The notes beneath the pieces were generated by a model. It was given only the letters and a program-made list of their open reading frames with translations. It was not told where the DNA came from and searched no databases. The translations under genes and the position numbers were made by a program. DNA of 52,836 bases from Parcubacteria group bacterium. Lineage in GTDB: Bacteria > Patescibacteriota > Minisyncoccia > UBA10092. The DNA is taken from assembly GCA_016188835.1 (NCBI GenBank), contig JACPHB010000014.1, positions 1 through 52,836 on the forward strand. The letters run 5' to 3'. This document shows, piece by piece, positions 3,641 to 44,802 of the stretch (position 1 is the first letter of the stretch; every line of letters begins with the position of its first letter).

Positions 3641-4258
3641 CTACGGAGCGTTGGGTTCCGGGCCTTGATTTATATATTTATCAATAAAATCACCGATGCG
3701 TTTCAATTCTTCACTGTTTAAAGAATTGCCGGAAACCGGATCAAATTTATCAAGCCAATTCCAAGCTGCGATAGCAATTAATTTGTCATTTTCCTTTCTC
3801 GGCTCAACAATAATTTTTTTTCCGAAACCATAAAAACTTTCCAACTGCTTAACCATTTCCGGACTCGCGTCCGGACGATAAGAAATCCAAACGTAACCAT
3901 GTTCAAGATTATGAACTAAACCCTCATCTGGCTGTTGCTCTTTGTAAACACCCTTTGATTCCCATTCTTCGTAATGCCACCCTGAAGTCGGTGGATTGGA
4001 ATTATAAACCGGATGCGAAGCGCCAACCGCAATATGGTTACGGCCTTGATCGGAAATTTCTATGGCATAAATTTTTCTTTCGGCAATTTTTTCCTTACTT
4101 CCTTTCGCAATCCAATAAATTCCTCCGCCTATAACCAAAACTGCAGCCAACCAAATCAAAATCTTTTTAAACATCCTGAATTTACCGGTTCTTTTTTCCC
4201 CGGCCAGTTTTTCATTTTTTTTCTGTTCATACAATTCTTTCGGCGATAAGTTATTCAT
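3641..4258 (-). CDS. DUF3105-like membrane-anchored protein
   Basis: H...YNSNPPTSGWH, VHNLEHGYVWISY, AAW. Confidence 0.8.
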   Translation of the reverse strand: MNNLSPKELYEQKKNEKLAGEKRTGKFRMFKKILIWLAAVLVIGGGIYWIAKGSKEKIAERKIYAIEISDQGRNHIAVGASHPVYNSNPPTSGWHYEEWESKGVYKEQQPDEGLVHNLEHGYVWISYRPDASPEMVKQLESFYGFGKKIIVEPRKENDKLIAIAAWNWLDKFDPVSGNSLNSEELKRIGDFIDKYINQGPEPNAP

Positions 4259-4262
4259 ATTT

Positions 4263-5465
4263 TTATTTATCTAAGGCTTCTTCAGTATACACATTTCTCG
4301 GGTTCCATAAAAGCCAACCGGAGGTAAGGCCGGCGTCATAAACTGCCTGTTTTTCTTTGCGAATCATTTCTCCATTATAAATCGCGCCGATGTTGAAATC
4401 CTGAAGCCACGGACGAAGTTTTTTTAGGCGCTTCTCAAAAACCGGATTAACAATAGCTGGTGTAGTCGTTCCAACTTCGATAACCGATTTATCCCAAAGC
4501 TGCGCCTTTCCCTTTTCAATCGTCCTCAAAACAACTTCATAAGGATATTCTGCTGGATTATCAAAACCAAAATTTCCCGGCAAATAATGCGACGGATAAA
4601 TCATTGGAGACACAAAATCAAAATAATCGTAAAGTTCAACAAAATTTTGCCCAATACCCAAATCGTCCTTCCTTAGCATATTATACGCGAATAAATCAAC
4701 GGAAAGCGTGATATAAGAATCGTACTTTTTAAGTTCTGAAGTTAAGTAATTCGCGAAATCATTTATTATATGGTTTTTTAATACCGAGGGGAAAACTACG
4801 TCGTCGTCTTTTTTAAATCCTGGATAACGGATGTAGTCAAAATTCAACTCGTCAAAACCGGCATCAATTGCTTTTTTGGCAATATCTACATTATAAGCCC
4901 AAGTTTCGCGATTTTCAGGATCCATCCAGTACCAGCCGCGATTATCAACCCACAGATAACCGTCTGATTTTTTAAAATACCAATCAGGATGCGCTTTAAT
5001 TTGAGAACTGTCTTGAAAAACCACAAGACGGGCAATGGCATAAATCCCATGCTCGTGAAGCCGGCCAACAAGTTGCTTTGTATAATCGTCTATATATGCG
5101 CCGCTGTCTTTCACATCAATTACGACGGCAGTAAGTTCAGTGCGATCAATCAAATCAATCCGCTTTTCTATGTTTTTTGAAGAACGTGATATCCAGACTG
5201 TAGTATAAATTCCCATTTGCCGAGCTGGTTTTTGAAGAATCGTTTCTTCCGGTCGACCGACATTCAGAAAACGATTGATAATATTATTTGAAAATAAAAA
5301 AACGGCCGCCGGAATTTTTTTAAAAAAATCAAAATTTTTAGCAATAGATACGCCGCCGGCAATAATGAAAATCAGCAAAAGTATTATCGTAAAACTATAT
5401 AATTTCACTGTGTTTATCTTACCATAAATTTTTAGATAAATTAAAACTGCCTTGTTGGCAGTCAA
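4263..5465 (-). CDS. Putative glycoside hydrolase (DUF4015-like TIM barrel), secreted; start uncertain
   Basis: VVIDVKD, IARLVVFQD, GFDELNFDYIRYP, IGQ, SPMIYPSHY, RPWLQDF, LWNPRNVY. Confidence 0.8.
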   Translation of the reverse strand: MTANKAVLIYLKIYGKINTVKLYSFTIILLLIFIIAGGVSIAKNFDFFKKIPAAVFLFSNNIINRFLNVGRPEETILQKPARQMGIYTTVWISRSSKNIEKRIDLIDRTELTAVVIDVKDSGAYIDDYTKQLVGRLHEHGIYAIARLVVFQDSSQIKAHPDWYFKKSDGYLWVDNRGWYWMDPENRETWAYNVDIAKKAIDAGFDELNFDYIRYPGFKKDDDVVFPSVLKNHIINDFANYLTSELKKYDSYITLSVDLFAYNMLRKDDLGIGQNFVELYDYFDFVSPMIYPSHYLPGNFGFDNPAEYPYEVVLRTIEKGKAQLWDKSVIEVGTTTPAIVNPVFEKRLKKLRPWLQDFNIGAIYNGEMIRKEKQAVYDAGLTSGWLLWNPRNVYTEEALDK

Positions 5466-19660: not shown

Positions 19661-19692
19661 ACCCGCCAAAAACACCGGCGGGTTTTATTTTT
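19661..19692 (+). terminator. Intrinsic terminator
   Basis: acccgcc-N9-ggcgggt followed by a T-rich run. Confidence 0.75.
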
Positions 19693-22223
19693 TAATTTTC
19701 AAACAAAACTTTTTTAAGGTATTGGCCGGTATAGGAATTTTTGTTTTTTGCGACTTCTTCCGGAGTGCCGTAAGCGACAACCTTGCCGCCTTTGTCACCT
19801 CCTTCGGGCCCTAAATCGATAATGTAATCCGCGCACTTTATAACGTGCAAATTGTGTTCAATGACTACAACCGTATTGCCTCTTTTTACAAGTTCGTCTA
19901 AAACTTTCAAAAGCATTTTAATATCTTCAAAGTGAAGCCCCGTTGTTGGTTCATCCAAAAGAAAAAGCGAACGTCGATGCATTGGCCGAGCCAAATGTTT
20001 CGCCAGTTTAATTCTCTGTGCTTCGCCTCCGGAAAGCGTTGTTGCCGATTGTCCAAGTTTAATATATCCCAAACCTACTTGGTTTAAAACTTTAAGCTTG
20101 TCAGCAATTGTATAAATATCTTCAAAAATTTTTAACGCTTCTTCAACGGTCATATCCAAAATTCCGAAAATATTTTTATTTTTATATTTTACCTCAAGCG
20201 TTTCATTGTTAAATCTTTTTCCGCGGCAAACGTCGCAAGTTACTAAAACAGGCGGTAAAAAATGCATTTCGATCAGTTTATGACCAGCTCCCTCACAGGA
20301 TTCGCACCGCCCACCCGGACGGTTAAACGAAAAACGCGAAATTCCATATCCTTTTTCCTTGGCTTCCGGCAGTGAAGCGAACAGGTCGCGAATAGGTGAA
20401 AAAACTCCAGTGTAAGTCGCCGGATTTGAACGCGGCGTCCGGCCGATCGGCGATTGATCTACCTCTATAATACTGTCAAGATATTCAAACCCTAAAACTT
20501 TCGCGACTCCTTCAGTTTCTTTATTAATATGGTCAATCCCCCTTCTTGTGCATTTTTTTAATATGTCAAAAACTAAGGTTGATTTTCCACTACCCGATAC
20601 GCCGGTAACGCAAATTAATCGCCTTAACGGAATATCAATATTTATATTTTTTAAATTATTTGCCGTTGCGCCGATTATTTTTATTTTCTCGTGTGAACTT
20701 TTTCTTCTCAATTCCGGAATTTCAATTTTTTCCTCGTCTTTAAGATATTTTAATGTCAGAGAATTGGTTTTGTAATTTTTTTTAAGCAAGATATTAGTTT
20801 CATCGGCAACAACCACTTCACCGCCATGTCGCCCTGGTCCTGGCCCCAAATCAACAAAGTAATCGGAATCTCTTATCGTTTTTTCATCGTGTTCAACAAC
20901 AATAACCGTATTGCCCATATCTCTTAAATCCTTTAAAGTTTTAAGAAGCCGTTCGTTATCTCTTTCATGAAGGCCGATAGTCGGCTCATCCAAAACATAC
21001 AGCGTCCCGGAAAGTTTTGAACCGATCTGCGATGCGAGGCGAATCCTTTGCGACTCCCCACCCGATAAACTACCGGCCTCGCGGCTTAAAGCGATATAAT
21101 CAAGGCCCACTTCAAGCAAAAAACCTAAACGAGAAATTATTTCTTTCAAAACCGTTTTGGCAATCTCTTTTTCATTTGCTTTCAGCTTGTCTTCCAGCTC
21201 AACAAAAAATTCATAGGCCTTATCAATGGTTAAATCCGCCGTTTCAGCTATATTTTTACCCTTTACTTTAACGGATAAAGATTCTTTTTTAAGCCGTTTA
21301 CCATTACAAACAGAGCAAAGTTCTTCGCTGTATATGAATTCCCGTCCGAGGCCGTGGCAATTTTCGCAAGCGCCATATGGACTGTTGAAAGAAAAAAGCC
21401 GCGGTTCTATTTCCTGAAATGAAAAATCGTCTTTAGTGCAAGACCATTTTGAAGACAAAAGTAGTTCCCTGCCTCCATCCCGCCCTTTAGGGCGAGGCTC
21501 GCCCCCATCGGGGGCGGCAAAAATAGCACCAACCAATCCTTCGCCATATTCAAGAGCCGTATCAACCGCTTCGGCAACACGAGAAACATCATCCGGCAAA
21601 ACTTTATCTACTACCAAATCAATATTGTGATTTTTATATCGGGATAAGTTTATTCTGTCGTGAAGAGAATGGAATTTACCGTCAATCCGCGCTTTAGAAA
21701 ACCCGTCTGAAAGAAAATTATAAAGCAATTGGTAATATTCGCCTTTCCGGCCGCGAACAACCGGCGCCAATATGGTAATAGGTTTTCCATCGGCCAGTTC
21801 AATAATAGTATCAATCATTTCTTGTGGAGAAAGCTTTTTAATTTCGCCACCGCAATTAGGACAAAATGGTTTTCCTATTCGCGCGAATAAGACCCGCATA
21901 TAATCGTAAATTTCGGTAAGCGTGGCCACAGTGGAACGCGGATTATGCGAATGCCCTTTTTGGTCAATGGCGATAGCCGGAGATAAACCGGTGATTTCTT
22001 CAACGTCGGGCGCGTCCATTTGGCCCAAAAACTGTCGCGCGTAAGGTGAAAGCGATTCCACGTAGCGCCTTTGGCCTTCGGCAAAAATCGTGTCAAACGC
22101 AAGTGACGATTTGCCACTTCCGGAGACACCTGTAAAAACTATTAATTTGTTTTTTGGCAGTTCAAGATCAATATTTTTTAGATTATGAACCTTGGCTCCT
22201 TTTATTATTATTTTATCCTTCAT
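19692..22223 (-). CDS. uvrA: Excinuclease ABC subunit A (lacks insertion domain)
   Basis: Two Walker A motifs (GVSGSGKS), LSGGE signatures, zinc-finger Cys pairs. Confidence 0.97.
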   Translation of the reverse strand: MKDKIIIKGAKVHNLKNIDLELPKNKLIVFTGVSGSGKSSLAFDTIFAEGQRRYVESLSPYARQFLGQMDAPDVEEITGLSPAIAIDQKGHSHNPRSTVATLTEIYDYMRVLFARIGKPFCPNCGGEIKKLSPQEMIDTIIELADGKPITILAPVVRGRKGEYYQLLYNFLSDGFSKARIDGKFHSLHDRINLSRYKNHNIDLVVDKVLPDDVSRVAEAVDTALEYGEGLVGAIFAAPDGGEPRPKGRDGGRELLLSSKWSCTKDDFSFQEIEPRLFSFNSPYGACENCHGLGREFIYSEELCSVCNGKRLKKESLSVKVKGKNIAETADLTIDKAYEFFVELEDKLKANEKEIAKTVLKEIISRLGFLLEVGLDYIALSREAGSLSGGESQRIRLASQIGSKLSGTLYVLDEPTIGLHERDNERLLKTLKDLRDMGNTVIVVEHDEKTIRDSDYFVDLGPGPGRHGGEVVVADETNILLKKNYKTNSLTLKYLKDEEKIEIPELRRKSSHEKIKIIGATANNLKNINIDIPLRRLICVTGVSGSGKSTLVFDILKKCTRRGIDHINKETEGVAKVLGFEYLDSIIEVDQSPIGRTPRSNPATYTGVFSPIRDLFASLPEAKEKGYGISRFSFNRPGGRCESCEGAGHKLIEMHFLPPVLVTCDVCRGKRFNNETLEVKYKNKNIFGILDMTVEEALKIFEDIYTIADKLKVLNQVGLGYIKLGQSATTLSGGEAQRIKLAKHLARPMHRRSLFLLDEPTTGLHFEDIKMLLKVLDELVKRGNTVVVIEHNLHVIKCADYIIDLGPEGGDKGGKVVAYGTPEEVAKNKNSYTGQYLKKVLFEN
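21470..21519. repeat. In-frame double-hairpin element in uvrA
   Basis: cgccc-ttta-gggcg aggct cgccccc-atc-gggggcg; encodes AAPDGGEPRPKGRDGG. Confidence 0.9.
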
Positions 22224-22237
22224 TTTATTAATTTAAG

Positions 22238-22246
22238 TTATCCACA
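22238..22246 (+). promoter_or_regulatory. DnaA box
   Basis: Perfect TTATCCACA in the uvrB-uvrA gap. Confidence 0.55.
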
Positions 22247-22259
22247 TCTTATTCACTTT

Positions 22260-24079
22260 TCATTCGGAGTCGGACTCCGAATCCGAGTTACTGATAAACG
22301 CCCGAATATCTTTAGTTATGGATTTCGGAGTAATGCCGTGTTTTTTATTGTAAGCCAGTTGAATATTCCGGCGGTAATTAGTTTGTCTTATCGCCTCTTC
22401 AAGTGAACCGGTTAAATTGTCAGCATATAAAATTACTTTGCCATTAATGTTTCTGGCGGCCCGGCCCATTGTTTGGATAAGCGAAACATCAGAGCGCAAA
22501 AATCCCTCTTTATCGGCATCTAAAATTGCTACAAGCGATACTTCCGGCAAGTCCAAACCCTCGCGCAATAAATTAATGCCGACCAAAACATCAAAATCGC
22601 CTTTTCTGAAATCGGTCAAAATTTGAGCGCGCTCTAGAGTTTTTATATCACTGTGGAGATATTTTGCTTTAATGCCGCGCGTGAGTAAAAATTCACTGAG
22701 TTCTTCTGACATTTTTTTGGTAAGTGTAAGCGCCAGGACTCTTTCCTTTAAAACAACGCGTTTTAAAATTTCTTTCACTAAATCATCAATTTGACTTATT
22801 TGAGTTTTCTTATCAAAAATAGAACGAACTTCAACTTCGGGGTCAATTAGCCCCGTTGGCCTGATAATCGCTTCAATAACTTTTTTAGAATTTTCAAACT
22901 CAAAATCACCCGGAGTCGCCGATGTAAAAATTATCTGGCCGGTGCGCTCTTTAAACTCTTTAAAATTAAGCGGGCGATTGTCTAAAGCGCTTGGCAACCT
23001 AAAGCCATGCTGAACTAAAACCTGTTTGCGGCTTTGGTCGCCCTCGTACATCCCCCGAATCTGCGGTACGGCAATATGTGATTCATCAATAATAGTTAAG
23101 AATTCATTAGGCGCGCCAAAATACTCCAAAAGCGTTGACGGCGATTCTCCGGGCAATTTTCCGACTAAATGGCGGGAATAATTTTCAACTCCATGGCAAT
23201 AGCCGATAGTTTTTATCATTTCTAAATCATATTTAGTGCGCCTTTCAAGACGCTCTGCTTCAAGCAAGAGTTCGGATTTCGTAAGATACAATAATCTTTC
23301 CTTAAGTTCTGCCTTAATTTCTTTCATCGCCCGCTCTCGTTCCGGTTCAGTAGAAATAAAATGCTTTGGCGGAAAAATAATTAACTCCTTTTCCGGAATA
23401 AACTTATTACCCTCTTTATCAAAATAATTAATAAGCGCTATATTGCCGACTTTCTGCTCTTTAAGCTCGATGCGGTAAATAATTTCTTCACTAGCGGGCA
23501 TTATCTCAAAAACATCGCCTCTTACCCTAAACGTGCCGCGCTTTAGCGACAGGCGCGTTCTTTCAAAATGTATTTTTACGAGTTGACGAATCAGGTCGCC
23601 GCGGGTAATTGGCTTATCAATATGCAATTTAAGAGTGGCGCCAAAATATGTTTCAGGGATCCCAAGATTATAAATACAAGAAACGGAAGCGACAATAATA
23701 ACGTCTTTACGGGTCATTAGGGCGCTCGTGGCAAAATGGCGCAGGCGGTCGATTTCATCGTTAATCATCGCTTCTTTATCTATATAAGTATCGGTTACGG
23801 GAATATAGGCCTCGGGCTGGTAGTAATCATAGTAAGAAACAAAATAGCAAACTTTATTTTTTATAATTGAGCCGCTAGAGTTTTATTTGGCGCGATAATG
23901 AGTGTCGGCTTGCCGATTTTTTCTATGACATTTGCCATAATAAATGTCTTACCGCTTCCGGTAACGCCTTGTAGCGTCTGATAGCGATTTCTAGTTTTAA
24001 TACTTTTAATAATTTCTTTTATGGCTTTTGGCTGGTCGCCCGCCGGTTTGAATTGTGATACGAGTTTAAATTTTGACAT
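22260..24079 (-). pseudogene. uvrB: uvrB split by a ~25-bp frameshifting deletion near 23861 (real lesion or assembly error)
   Basis: The 5' part has [12 protein letters not shown] and NKTLAAQL*. The other frame resumes KNKVCYFVSYYDYYQPEAY... The conserved Y-x-EFK-x-FFP segment is absent. Confidence 0.85.
22262..22282. repeat. Palindrome forming the uvrB C-terminus
   Basis: attcggagtc-g-gactccgaat; encodes DSESDSE. Confidence 0.75.
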
Positions 24080-24171
24080 ATATAGCCAAACGCCCCAGTT
24101 TTAAAACACTGGGGGATAATTGATTTATTTAATTAGTTTATATTTTAATCTAATTTAACAAAAAAGTCAAT

Positions 24172-24194
24172 AAAAAAATCCCGCAAAGCGGGAT
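24172..24194 (-). terminator. Intrinsic terminator
   Basis: atcccgc-aaa-gcgggat with a T-run on the minus strand. Confidence 0.75.
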
Positions 24195-24208
24195 AAGAAA
24201 AATTAATT

Positions 24209-24745
24209 TTAGCTTGGTTTCCTTGGGCCATTAACTCCTGAAACCCCACAATCTACCCAGTACACTTCGGAAGTATTAACTTTAATTTCTGGCATTACAA
24301 TTAGATACTTGTCGCAATCATAAGTCTGCATTCCTGCTTCTCTGATCAATTTATCAAAAAAACCTCCAAGTCCTCTTATCGTAACAAAACCGTAACCGTA
24401 ATCAATGTTTATAAGCAAACAATCAGCAAATGGAGAAATTTTTTTAAGCGCCCTAAAATAATAAGAATCTCTAATTTCAAAAAGGAATTTTGCCCATTCC
24501 GACTTTCTAATAGTTTCATCTTTTGCAGTTAATTTGGTCAGATAGTTTTCCGCGCTTTTCTTTAAATTGGTTTTTCCACCCCAATATCCACCACGAACTT
24601 CATCAACTGCTTCTGCCGCTTTTATAGCGGCTGTAAAAGTATCCTGACTAACGCTCTCAATATAATTCTTTACTGTAATTAGAAACTTTTCAAAAAGCGC
24701 TCCGCGCTGTTCGTCTCTTGCAATATCAGTTAATGCATCGCTCAT
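24209..24745 (-). CDS. Hypothetical protein (ORFan cassette)
   Basis: GGAGGT RBS, TTGACA promoter and terminator; no recognised family. Confidence 0.7.
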   Translation of the reverse strand: MSDALTDIARDEQRGALFEKFLITVKNYIESVSQDTFTAAIKAAEAVDEVRGGYWGGKTNLKKSAENYLTKLTAKDETIRKSEWAKFLFEIRDSYYFRALKKISPFADCLLINIDYGYGFVTIRGLGGFFDKLIREAGMQTYDCDKYLIVMPEIKVNTSEVYWVDCGVSGVNGPRKPS

Positions 24746-24864
24746 TTTTGACCTCCGATTACATATTTATAAAAAGAACAAAAATCTGAGTGGCTATAAA
24801 TTAACATAGATTTATAAACTATGTCAATGGTAAAATTTTTAAGAAATATCTATAATAATGCTGT

Positions 24865-25464
24865 ATGGAAAACCGCACCGAACAAATGCGAAAAATAAAA
24901 GACGAAATTGTGGCGGCAAAAGATTCGCCGCTTTATGGCTATCGCATAAAAAACAAATATTTTCCGGTTATTGGTGAAGGCAGATATAGCGCAAAAATAA
25001 TGTTCATTGGCGAGGCGCCGGGAAGAAATGAGGCGGAAACCGGCCGGCCATTTTGCGGCGCTTCGGGAAGAATTTTGGACGAACTTTTAGCTTCAATAGG
25101 TATAGATCGTAAAGAGGTTTACATAACCAATATTGTTAAAGACCGGCCGCCGGAAAACTGTGATCCCAACCCAAACGAAATAGAATTTTACGCCCCGTTT
25201 TTGGATAGGCAGATTGAAATAATCAAACCGGAAGTTATCGCTACCTTGGGACGTTTTTCAATGGCTTACATAATGAAAAAGTTCGGATTGGAATCCGAAT
25301 TAAAATCAATAAGTATAATCCACGGCAAGGTTTTTTCCGCCGCCACTTCTTACGGCAATGTTAAAATAATTCCCTTGTACCACCCCGCCGTCGCCGTCTA
25401 CGGCACCAATAAAGAAATTCTAAAAAAGGATTTTAAGGCCTTATCTGGATTGATTGGGCAGTAA
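24865..25464 (+). CDS. udg: Uracil-DNA glycosylase family 4
   Basis: FIGEAPG, GRPFCGASG, YITNIVK-RPP-N, LYHPA. Confidence 0.93.
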   Translation: MENRTEQMRKIKDEIVAAKDSPLYGYRIKNKYFPVIGEGRYSAKIMFIGEAPGRNEAETGRPFCGASGRILDELLASIGIDRKEVYITNIVKDRPPENCDPNPNEIEFYAPFLDRQIEIIKPEVIATLGRFSMAYIMKKFGLESELKSISIIHGKVFSAATSYGNVKIIPLYHPAVAVYGTNKEILKKDFKALSGLIGQ

Positions 25465-25475
25465 TACTATCATTC

Positions 25476-25979
25476 TCATTTTATACCAAGTAATTCCACT
25501 TCAAAAATCAGAGTGGCGTTTGGCGGGATAACGCCGCCGGCGCCGCGCGAGCCATACGCCAAATCAGGCGGAATCGTAAGTTTTCTTTTCTCGCCAACTT
25601 TCATTCCTGAAACTCCGATATCCCAGCCCTTTATTACCTGTCCTGCGCCCAAAGTAAACTCAAAAGGAATACCCCGATCAACGCTGGAATCAAACTTCAT
25701 CCCATTTTCCAAAACGCCGGTATAGTGGACGGCAACCGTGTTGCCGTTTTTAACTTCCCGCCCAGCATCTGGGCGAGGCTCGCCCCCATTTGGGGCGGCA
25801 ATGCCCGCTCCTTCTTTTAGTATTTCAATTAGCACTCCGTTTTTAACAAATTTAGCCATATTTGGTAAATTATTAATTTTATCCGATTGCGACTCTTGAT
25901 TTTTATTATAAACAATAAAAAACCCGACAACTCCGATTACAACAAATGCTGCTAAACCTATAATGATATTTTTACTCAT
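25476..25979 (-). CDS. FKBP-type peptidyl-prolyl isomerase with N-terminal TM
   Basis: [32 protein letters not shown]. Confidence 0.95.
25756..25800. repeat. In-frame double-hairpin element in FKBP
   Basis: cgcccag-cat-ctgggcg aggct cgcccc-cattt-ggggcg; encodes [14 protein letters not shown]. Confidence 0.9.
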
Positions 25980-33007: not shown

Positions 33008-33036
33008 GGTTTTTATTTTAATAATTTGTATTTTTT

Positions 33037-33140
33037 ATATTTAAAGAAAATAAAATTTTAAAATTGTAGGCGGGGGCGAGCCGTTCGCCGAAGGCGAATG
33101 GGGCTAAGCAATTTTAAAATTTTTATTTTTTTCAAATATA
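33037..33140. repeat. Dispersed structured element copy B
   Basis: Core differs from copy A (2937-3000) by 2 nt; diverged AT-rich arms stay complementary. Confidence 0.9.
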
Positions 33141-43893: not shown

Positions 43894-44802
43894 TTAGGAA
43901 ATAATTTCTTTTATCAGTTTGACGCCGAGATCAACAGTGGGGTCGTAGCGCAGAATGCGCTTTCGCCACCAATTAAGCGGGCTTATTTCCACAATATCCG
44001 CGGCTCTTAAGTTTGGCAATCCAATTTTTAACTGTTTTACCAAACTAACAAGTTCCGTATCGGTGAAACCACCGGGACTGGGACAGCCGGTTCCCGGCGC
44101 GTAAGCGCCGGAAGCAACATCAATATCAATTGATAAATAAGTTGCCTCCAATTTCCGAAATTTTTCCAAAATGCGAATAACTGAAAAATCATTCATTGTA
44201 AATCCTCCGGGATCCTTGATGGCGCCCATGCGGTAATATTTGATGTTGAATTTATCCAAAAATTCTTTTTCAGATTTTTCCATCTGGCGTAATCCAAGAA
44301 TTAAAACGTTTTCAGGCAAAACGTACTCGTCTTCAATAAGCCAATGAAGCCAGTCGGAATGAATCGGCCAGTCGGCCTTAGAACAGCAATCCGGATGGGC
44401 GTCTAATACAACGAGTCCCGTTTGCTGCCGTCCAAATGTTTGCGATGTTCCAATATATGTTGAAGCGGTGATACTGTGAGAACCGCCCAAAAACAGAATG
44501 TTTGTGTCAAATCCCCAACCTTTCAAATATGATAAGATAGATTTATGCATCTTTCCCCAGCCGTCGGCACTATTTTGGTGTCCGAATCCAAAATCTATCT
44601 CATACCACGGGATATCATCCCAAGACGAAATACCGTTATCGGCCATAAAAACTCTCTGGCGCATAAATTCATTTTTAAGCGCTTGAGGCGCTTTTCTGGC
44701 ATTTTTGGGCTTTGCTATATTTAAAGAACAATATCCCCCGCCATATGGCACTTGGATCACGATCCAGTCCTGTTTAGCTATTTCTGCCTCCGTATTTAAC
44801 AA
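43894..44802 (-). CDS. Arginase/agmatinase (ureohydrolase) family protein
   Basis: GGSHS, LDAHPD, SIDIDV, APGTG-P-PGG, DIVEISP. Confidence 0.9.
   Translation of the reverse strand: MLNTEAEIAKQDWIVIQVPYGGGYCSLNIAKPKNARKAPQALKNEFMRQRVFMADNGISSWDDIPWYEIDFGFGHQNSADGWGKMHKSILSYLKGWGFDTNILFLGGSHSITASTYIGTSQTFGRQQTGLVVLDAHPDCCSKADWPIHSDWLHWLIEDEYVLPENVLILGLRQMEKSEKEFLDKFNIKYYRMGAIKDPGGFTMNDFSVIRILEKFRKLEATYLSIDIDVASGAYAPGTGCPSPGGFTDTELVSLVKQLKIGLPNLRAADIVEISPLNWWRKRILRYDPTVDLGVKLIKEIIS

Follow-up and report, generated by a model that had tools for sequence, protein, structure and literature searches.

The window analysed here covers positions 1 to 52,836 of contig JACPHB010000014.1 of a Parcubacteria group bacterium (assembly GCA_016188835.1), an ultra-small groundwater bacterium whose genome comprises 662,466 bases in 24 contigs with 39% G+C. 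Two genes of the window, uvrA and a gene for an FKBP-type peptidyl-prolyl isomerase, each contain in frame a small element that consists of two adjacent hairpins; an earlier note on this DNA had regarded these inserts, together with two intergenic hairpins, as a single family of mobile palindromes. The features that are involved are located as follows:

19692..22223, minus strand: uvrA, host gene, open reading frame of 843 amino acids
21480..21518, minus strand: double-hairpin element in uvrA, 39 bases, read as AAPDGGEPRPKGR
25476..25979, minus strand: FKBP-type peptidyl-prolyl isomerase, host gene, open reading frame of 167 amino acids with an N-terminal membrane helix
25758..25799, minus strand: double-hairpin element in the FKBP gene, 42 bases, read as 14 amino acids
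2922..3015, plus strand: long-form intergenic hairpin of about 95 bases, with an AT-rich stem and a GC-rich centre that contains the shared 11-mer
33036..33140, plus strand: second long-form intergenic hairpin

We refer to the elements of the kind found in uvrA and the FKBP gene as the short form, and to the intergenic ones as the long form. A search of the whole window against Rfam at the gathering threshold returned a tRNA as its sole match.

The translations of the two open reading frames show that both inserts encode AAPxGGEPRP. For the motif GGGGGCGAGCC, with at most one mismatch, the window has four matches, two on the plus strand (2953 and 33072) and two on the minus strand (21496-21506 and 25777-25787); the chance expectation is 0.34, and four copies were reached in none of 100 shuffled windows. 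Across the genome the motif occurs 18 times, of which 16 are within an intergenic hairpin family of roughly 100 bases and two are in the uvrA and FKBP genes. The core that had been described as common to the coding elements and the intergenic elements near 2922 and 33037 is thus present in both, i.e. the 11-mer followed by TCGCC in the coding elements or by GTTCGCC in the long form. The double hairpin, too, is borne out by sequence and fold in both genes, with the arrangement hairpin-AGGCT-hairpin on the plus strand: the uvrA element (-30.2 kcal/mol) and the FKBP element (-31.4 kcal/mol) each fold into a pair of neighbouring hairpins, with a bulged A in the first and, in the second, a G.U pair that is confined to the sense strand. 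The z-scores of these folds are modest (-2.2 and -1.8), because the shuffled sequences are equally GC-rich; fold energy alone is weak evidence, and the weight is carried by the covariation across copies that is presented below.

The short form as inserted DNA

Our comparison has been conducted in two sets of genomes: 41 related genomes, 30 of which are from other families, and 401 genomes of the class. One clean empty site is that of the FKBP gene, which is present in 10 of the 12 genomes of the family (our own genome being counted): exactly 42 bases, i.e. 14 codons, located between ATT and GAA, are missing in all nine family orthologues. The earlier estimate of an insert of about 14 amino acids is correct as to size, but the borders that follow from the orthologues, EGAGI and EVKNG, are each one residue away from those that had been claimed. 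A third copy is located in the gene of seryl-tRNA synthetase (SerRS), as a clean insertion of 33 bases that is absent from five of five orthologues. At these two clean empty sites, target duplication is absent; for the copy in the methylpurine glycosylase (MPG) gene, clean borders were not obtainable, the region being too variable in three orthologues. The orthologues without the insert lack both the peptide and the hairpins, instead of keeping the peptide without the DNA hairpins, so that the case which the earlier note had named as a refutation did not arise. The proposal of a dispersed, mobile, palindromic DNA family that is inserted in frame is supported.

Orthologues of uvrA were detected in 41 of the 41 related genomes, and the hairpins are absent in the seven closest orthologues that were compared; the proteins of genomes G003, G006 and G007 are shorter by 13-14 residues. 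Genomes G001 and G002 have a different loop of 12 codons at this position, the start of which (DGG.P) is like that of the insert, and therefore the UvrA site possibly has a longer history. The same loop also resembles a decayed copy of a second type of hairpin, the EPSFA.A.EG type that is described below. In sequencing runs, same-strain contigs of three runs from two studies retain the UvrA insert; short replacements at its position were seen in two runs, and originate from less similar records.

Our genome contains seven copies of the short form, located in the genes of UvrA, FKBP, SerRS, NusA, MPG and alanine racemase and, in one case, outside any coding region; an additional, decayed copy is located in the tail of NusA. 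The copies are 33-58 bases long and consist of two adjacent GC-rich hairpins with a fixed GAGCC core, their ends being inverted copies of each other (from GCCGCC... to ...GGGCGG). A strict pattern, which demands the core and the second hairpin, finds 32 copies in eight of the 41 relatives, compared with one match for the reversed control; across the class, the short form was found in 60 of the 401 genomes, with at most 12 copies per genome. A scan for GC-rich islands returned 346 islands and was too unspecific to be used, and GC skew was rejected as a test of strand choice, being confounded by gene direction.

The same DNA is read as GEPRP, as RAS(P/S/L) or as ASLA, according to the length of the loop, and occurs in both orientations and in three frames, i.e. 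the search for translations in other frames, which the earlier note had suggested, found it in two other frames and on the opposite strand. The 15 sense hosts that are confirmed by Pfam or by orthology are UvrA, FKBP, SerRS, MPG, NusA (three times), DnaK, GrpE, GatB (twice), the CCA-adding enzyme, SSB, S19 and a deaminase, and the three antisense hosts are IF-2, FolD and a ComF-like protein; nine more host frames are without a Pfam match. An antisense copy in a signal-peptide-peptidase frame of G003 was rejected as a coding copy, as it is located about 40 bases past a tRNA-Glu gene, within a T-arm remnant. Where the ends can be defined, the length of the copy is divisible by three in 22 of 27 cases, and the five exceptions comprise three non-coding or tRNA-linked copies, one in a frame of unknown status, and the MPG copy. 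The second hairpin has 2.29 extra nested pairs past the fixed stem, compared with 0.47 in shuffled sequences (maximum 1.14 in 2000), and in five copies a compensatory change from CC/GG to CT/AG has occurred. The family is an element at the level of DNA, and not a peptide.

When translated, the element appears to add a flexible segment. The AlphaFold model of the FKBP protein, built with 10 sequences, has a confident domain and an insert of low confidence without regular structure (mean predicted local distance difference test, pLDDT, of 52 for residues 61-70).

The acidic loop at the N-terminus of NusA, where our own copy is located (contig 13, about 34910), is a hotspot: members of the double-hairpin family occupy it in four genomes, in one of them as a triple hairpin. 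In most other genomes the same loop contains a different GC-rich hairpin, which is read as EPSFA.A.EG, and in one genome it contains none.

The two long-form elements of the window fold more stably than expected from their composition (-46 kcal/mol, z -9.45, for the element at 2922; -36 kcal/mol, z -6.07, for the element at 33036). Both are present at the same sites in G003 and absent in G001, where the flanks of the 33036 site meet, and therefore the long-form family has also been gained and lost. Its distribution is narrower than that of the short form: it occurs in nine of the 41 relatives, all of which belong to our own family; the 30 genomes that represent other families are without it. 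The part that the two forms have in common is only GGGG(G)CGAGCC, followed directly by a hairpin of variable sequence; the GGGG(G) run forms base pairs in the short form but bulges out in the long form, which starts with (G/C)TAGG, while the short form is without a head of the GTAG type. The idea of a single family that is long between genes and short within them is thus not supported, as the spreads differ (our own family versus 60 of 401 genomes) and only a short module is common to both; that this module is a recognition module used by both forms is possible, although we consider it the less probable case. The heptamer GCGAGCC is followed by a hairpin in 27 of its 73 occurrences, compared with 13.5% for permuted heptamers; as an independent proof of kinship this test was rejected, being driven by the two families themselves.

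Some long-form copies are composite and repeat the unit of motif plus hairpin. In two of them, near 26508-26542 of contig 4 and 24381-24414 of contig 15, two tandem units of GGCGAGCC plus hairpin are present; contigs 2 and 17 have another repeat in which the hairpin that is inserted in the composites is also found.

The nuclease gene beside the repeat

The earlier note had suggested a search for a RAYT/TnpA or nuclease gene that is flanked by the repeat. As regards the nuclease, this search was successful: the non-coding copy of our genome (contig 6) is located between a tRNA-Gly(GCC) gene and a small gene of 81 codons that encodes a GIY-YIG nuclease (Pfam GIY-YIG, 67.9 bits). The outer arm of the second hairpin of this copy is the complement of the 3' strand of the tRNA acceptor stem, and the same seven bases recur just past the element. 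Among the best-match GIY-YIG loci of 30 related genomes, the core is adjacent only at the two closest homologues, i.e. in our own genome and in G025, where the homologue is 67% identical and the order is also tRNA-Gly(GCC), double hairpin, gene.

Across the 401 genomes of the class, close homologues of the nuclease (E up to 1e-24) occur in 17 genomes from 17 genera; they are single-domain proteins of 81-86 residues, and the alignment spans 78-80 of these. In 14 of the 17, the core is located at most 200 bases upstream of the gene, always in the same relative orientation; of the others, one has the core downstream, one has a variant with two mismatches, and one is cut by the end of the contig. 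The core is found on both sides of the nuclease gene in G215 only. In four loci, the distance from the end of the repeat to the start codon is 6-20 bases. Matches to NCBIfam are confined to a weak one to a group I intron endonuclease.

The repeat and the gene are associated with tRNA genes, as well as with each other. In genomes G025, G105, G374, G241 and G227, the cassette is bordered by duplicated pieces of the tRNA, and in G374, G241 and G215 a remnant of the T-loop is split by the hairpin after TTC or GTC; G011 and G001 have no cassette at tRNA-Gly(GCC). Of 23 copies whose second hairpin is long and AT-rich, chosen by eye from the class-wide matches, 16 overlap the 3' end of a tRNA-Gly gene and one overlaps a tRNA-Ser gene. 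Within our own genome, all four small GIY-YIG genes (contigs 10, 4, 6 and 12) adjoin tRNA genes, and the neighbouring hairpin is different for each.

The gene on contig 10 is preceded by a 5' fragment that resembles tRNA-Leu and by a hairpin, CCTGCCTGCC..GGCAGGCAGG, which occurs at three further places, once nested in a long-form element (contig 17, near 23249). In G003, the tRNA-Gly(CCC) gene on contig 1 is followed by other GC-rich hairpins and by a duplicate of its own 3' half, and a different small GIY-YIG gene is located about 1.1 kb downstream; this locus has the look of a tRNA-targeted cassette of the same kind, in which a different hairpin family takes part.

As regards transposases, our genome has two RAYT-like genes for Y1 transposases, each of about 230 codons and both on contig 7 (about 4000-4700 and 43990-44760). 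They pass the Y1_Tnp cut-off with 37.6 and 36.1 bits, no further Y1_Tnp match being present in the genome, and match the model of the REP-associated tyrosine transposase weakly, below its cut-off. One gene has a short AT-rich palindrome on both sides and the other has a direct repeat of about 30 bases on both sides; each has its own, different repeat, and the expectation of a RAYT/TnpA gene that is flanked by the double hairpin was not borne out.

Proposed origin of the inserts

The explanation that we favour, with a probability of about 65%, is that the inserts in uvrA and the FKBP gene are solitary copies of a short mobile element of DNA, non-autonomous and 33-54 bases in length, the full cassette of which is the hairpin with the GIY-YIG gene at a tRNA gene. 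This cassette, which occurs across the class, consists of the double hairpin, followed in fixed relative orientation by the gene for a single-domain GIY-YIG protein of 81-86 residues; it is seated in tRNA genes, mostly those of tRNA-Gly, either in the T-loop or at the 3' end. The insertions, the spread of the family and the association of repeat, nuclease gene and tRNA gene are direct observations, and what follows is a model. By analogy with SsnA and its NTS hairpin, the nuclease may recognise the hairpin as single-stranded DNA and nick beside it; repair or strand transfer could then copy the hairpin module to sites that are similar to the T-loop, i.e. TTC, followed by a purine and A. Among the copies that enter genes, survival would be limited to those that have a length divisible by three and are located in surface loops, to be translated as floppy loops.

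The proposed target derives from the bases around the dispersed copies. On the tRNA-sense strand of 27 such copies, T occurs at position -2 in 18 and at position -3 in 14; the C that directly precedes the copies is fixed by the search pattern. On the 3' side, a purine occupies position +1 in 18 of the 27 and is followed by A in 12. This context seems to resemble the T-loop site, and we treat the resemblance as a lead.

Several observations weigh against the proposed origin. The preference for TTC is confounded by the plentiful GAA codons of an AT-rich genome, and the borders are fixed by two clean empty sites only. The UvrA site may, judging by its sequence, have a history that is more complex than a single clean insertion: DGG.P..K of the insert recurs in the loop of G002, where there is no hairpin. 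Variation in presence or absence within the strain was not seen in the reads, and the contigs of four runs contained no same-strain copy without either insert. The nuclease gene is kept at only five of the 23 tRNA-linked loci. The solved chains that are closest to its product, 1zg2 and 1ywl, belong to UPF0213 proteins (E about 1.6e-7), and not to a characterised Ssn. Although the short form occurs in 12 of the 17 genomes with a close homologue of the nuclease, compared with 48 of the 384 others (Fisher 1.5e-7), this co-occurrence is due in part to the adjacent copy itself, and genomes that are related do not count as independent. Genome G001 has five copies and no small GIY-YIG candidate (the genome is 93% complete), and there is no close homologue of the nuclease in the other genomes of the family, though five of them carry copies. 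The copy number is also low, never exceeding 12. Finally, the steps of the mechanism are all ones that we infer, by analogy with other systems.

A bolder version of the cassette, which we put forward tentatively and would not expect to hold in full, is that the bare GIY-YIG catalytic domain recognises its own double hairpin in single-stranded form and homes to tRNA genes, either at the acceptor end or at the T-loop, which is universally conserved, rebuilding the tRNA in the process; the module would also be pasted into T-loop-like sites in essential genes and be kept there, as DNA, by continuing conversion, with hairpin families replacing each other in the same loop.

Among the alternatives, the one in which no dedicated enzyme takes part, so that the hairpins spread, or are renewed, by template switching in replication or by gene conversion between short GC-rich palindromes and the nuclease gene is a passenger at tRNA hotspots, is unlikely in our judgement, but it accommodates several observations: different hairpin families occupy the same protein loop in sister genomes (the N-terminal loop of NusA and the loop of UvrA), hairpins are nested within each other, and many genomes in which copies occur have no nuclease gene. 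Chance neighbours would not be expected to keep a fixed orientation and, in four loci, a spacing of 6-20 bases, nor to show such specificity of association, with the core adjacent at only the two closest of 30 GIY-YIG loci. We give rather less credit to a mechanism of the REP/RAYT type, in which one of the two RAYT-like Y1 transposases would mobilise the hairpins in trans on single-stranded DNA. The genome does contain two genes above the Y1_Tnp cut-off that weakly match the REP-associated model, and in all seven coding copies the element strand is on the G-rich strand, as a single-strand mechanism predicts, although this is confounded by gene direction; each of these genes, however, has a different flanking repeat, the short form is without the GTAG-type head, and the repeat adjoins the GIY-YIG gene instead in 14 of 17 cases.

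A role of the double hairpin in the mRNA, e.g. in stability, pausing or protein binding, seems very improbable. The excess of sense hosts (15 confirmed, compared with three antisense), the G.U pair of the second hairpin that exists on the sense strand only, and the preservation of the stems by compensatory change would all agree with such a function, but the element is antisense in the genes of IF-2, FolD and the ComF-like protein and on the opposite strand at tRNA flanks, it is absent from the closest orthologues, and its host genes are mutually unrelated. Selection on the peptide AAPxGGEPRP itself, with the similarity of the DNA as a consequence, has a negligible likelihood: frame and peptide are common to both copies of the window, but other copies use two further reading frames and the opposite strand, and the peptide is already refuted as the conserved unit by these frame data; besides, orthologues are without the peptide, and the insert is predicted to be disordered.

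With the cassette as the favoured origin, the element looks like miniature selfish DNA that is tolerated by proteins. The ultra-small genomes of the Candidate Phyla Radiation (CPR), or Patescibacteria, are thought to be streamlined; nonetheless, essential genes of these bacteria, for DNA repair, translation and chaperones, contain translated selfish DNA. The link of the family to a specific nuclease of 81 residues and to tRNA genes provides a testable mechanism for the origin of the inserts and may also offer a new source of single-strand nucleases that are specific for hairpins. Annotators should be cautious, as a GC-rich loop of low complexity in a CPR protein can be a piece of mobile DNA and not a feature of the protein. 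Our literature search found no description of such repeats in CPR bacteria.

Known systems and neighbouring observations

The closest analogues that we have found differ according to the property that is compared: in its behaviour, the family resembles the Rickettsia palindromic elements (RPE), in its link to a gene it resembles the Ssn/SRM repeats, and in its location at tRNA genes it resembles SegB of phage T4. Like RPE, the family is a dispersed palindrome that is located in frame in housekeeping genes with no kinship to one another, in a small and AT-rich genome; the host proteins tolerate it as an additional segment at their surface, and close relatives differ in whether they have it. RPE are roughly 100-150 bases long, while the copies here have 33-58 bases, occur in a different phylum, and are likened to RPE by behaviour and not by sequence; moreover, a candidate GIY-YIG partner gene and a tRNA home site are seen here. 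The double-hairpin family works like RPE, but is not a member of them. The double-hairpin elements and GC clusters of mitochondria are, similarly, tiny GC-rich (double) hairpins that are spread in AT-rich genomes, also inside coding regions; they belong to organelles of eukaryotes, the likeness is one of description and not of sequence, and we know of no nuclease partner for them.

REP elements have a conserved head of the GTAG type at the 5' side of the hairpin. What they have in common with our repeats is that short GC-rich palindromes with a conserved flank are scattered over the genome and presumably handled as single-stranded hairpins, and the long form has a (G/C)TAGG head; the short form differs in being headless, often intragenic, and not located at the flanks of either RAYT-like gene. 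Miniature elements derived from IS200/IS605 differ as well, in that no Y1 transposase gene with the same end hairpins occurs in our genome. Such elements insert 3' of a short fixed target without duplicating it; here, duplication is absent at the two clean empty sites, and a preference for TTC is seen in about half to two thirds of the 27 copies, confounded by codon usage.

SegB, a free-standing GIY-YIG homing endonuclease of the tRNA gene cluster of phage T4, is a larger protein with a DNA-binding part, which cuts double-stranded DNA. The protein described here has only the catalytic domain, of 81-86 residues, and is accompanied by a hairpin repeat, but the position of a GIY-YIG gene among tRNA genes, variably present between relatives, is shared with SegB (PMC2330249).

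According to main-text passages of the paper on Ssn (Chenal et al. 2025, PMC11893778), SsnA is a GIY-YIG protein of 94 residues that binds and cuts the NTS hairpin as single-stranded DNA only, and the Ssn/SRM repeats occur in hundreds of copies, mostly intergenic and often on both sides of the gene. The likeness to our cassette, as far as these passages go, is that a single-domain GIY-YIG protein of about 90 residues is encoded beside a hairpin repeat, further copies of which are scattered over the genome, and that the repeat consists of a fixed non-palindromic flank and a stem (PMC11893778). Two properties of that system are found here, namely the single-domain GIY-YIG protein (81 residues) and the cognate hairpin next to its gene; the differences are that there are at most 12 copies per genome, that many of them are in frame, and that the repeat is usually on one side of the gene and at tRNA genes. 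The main-text passages of PMC11893778 contain no mention of tRNA sites or Patescibacteria.

Beside uvrA, the uvrB gene is broken into two minus-strand frames, an N-terminal piece of 79 codons (23861-24100) and the remainder (22260-23882), which overlap at 23861-23882. Contigs of the sequencing runs X2 and X5 have 25 additional bases behind 23861, which do not occur in X4, and therefore the break is either a strain variant or an assembly gap. The uvrA product has 843 residues, compared with frames of 930-1015 residues in most other families of the class, and its alignment with the longer frames breaks at residues 296-302; by this alignment, an internal segment of UvrA is therefore missing in our own lineage and in a few others.

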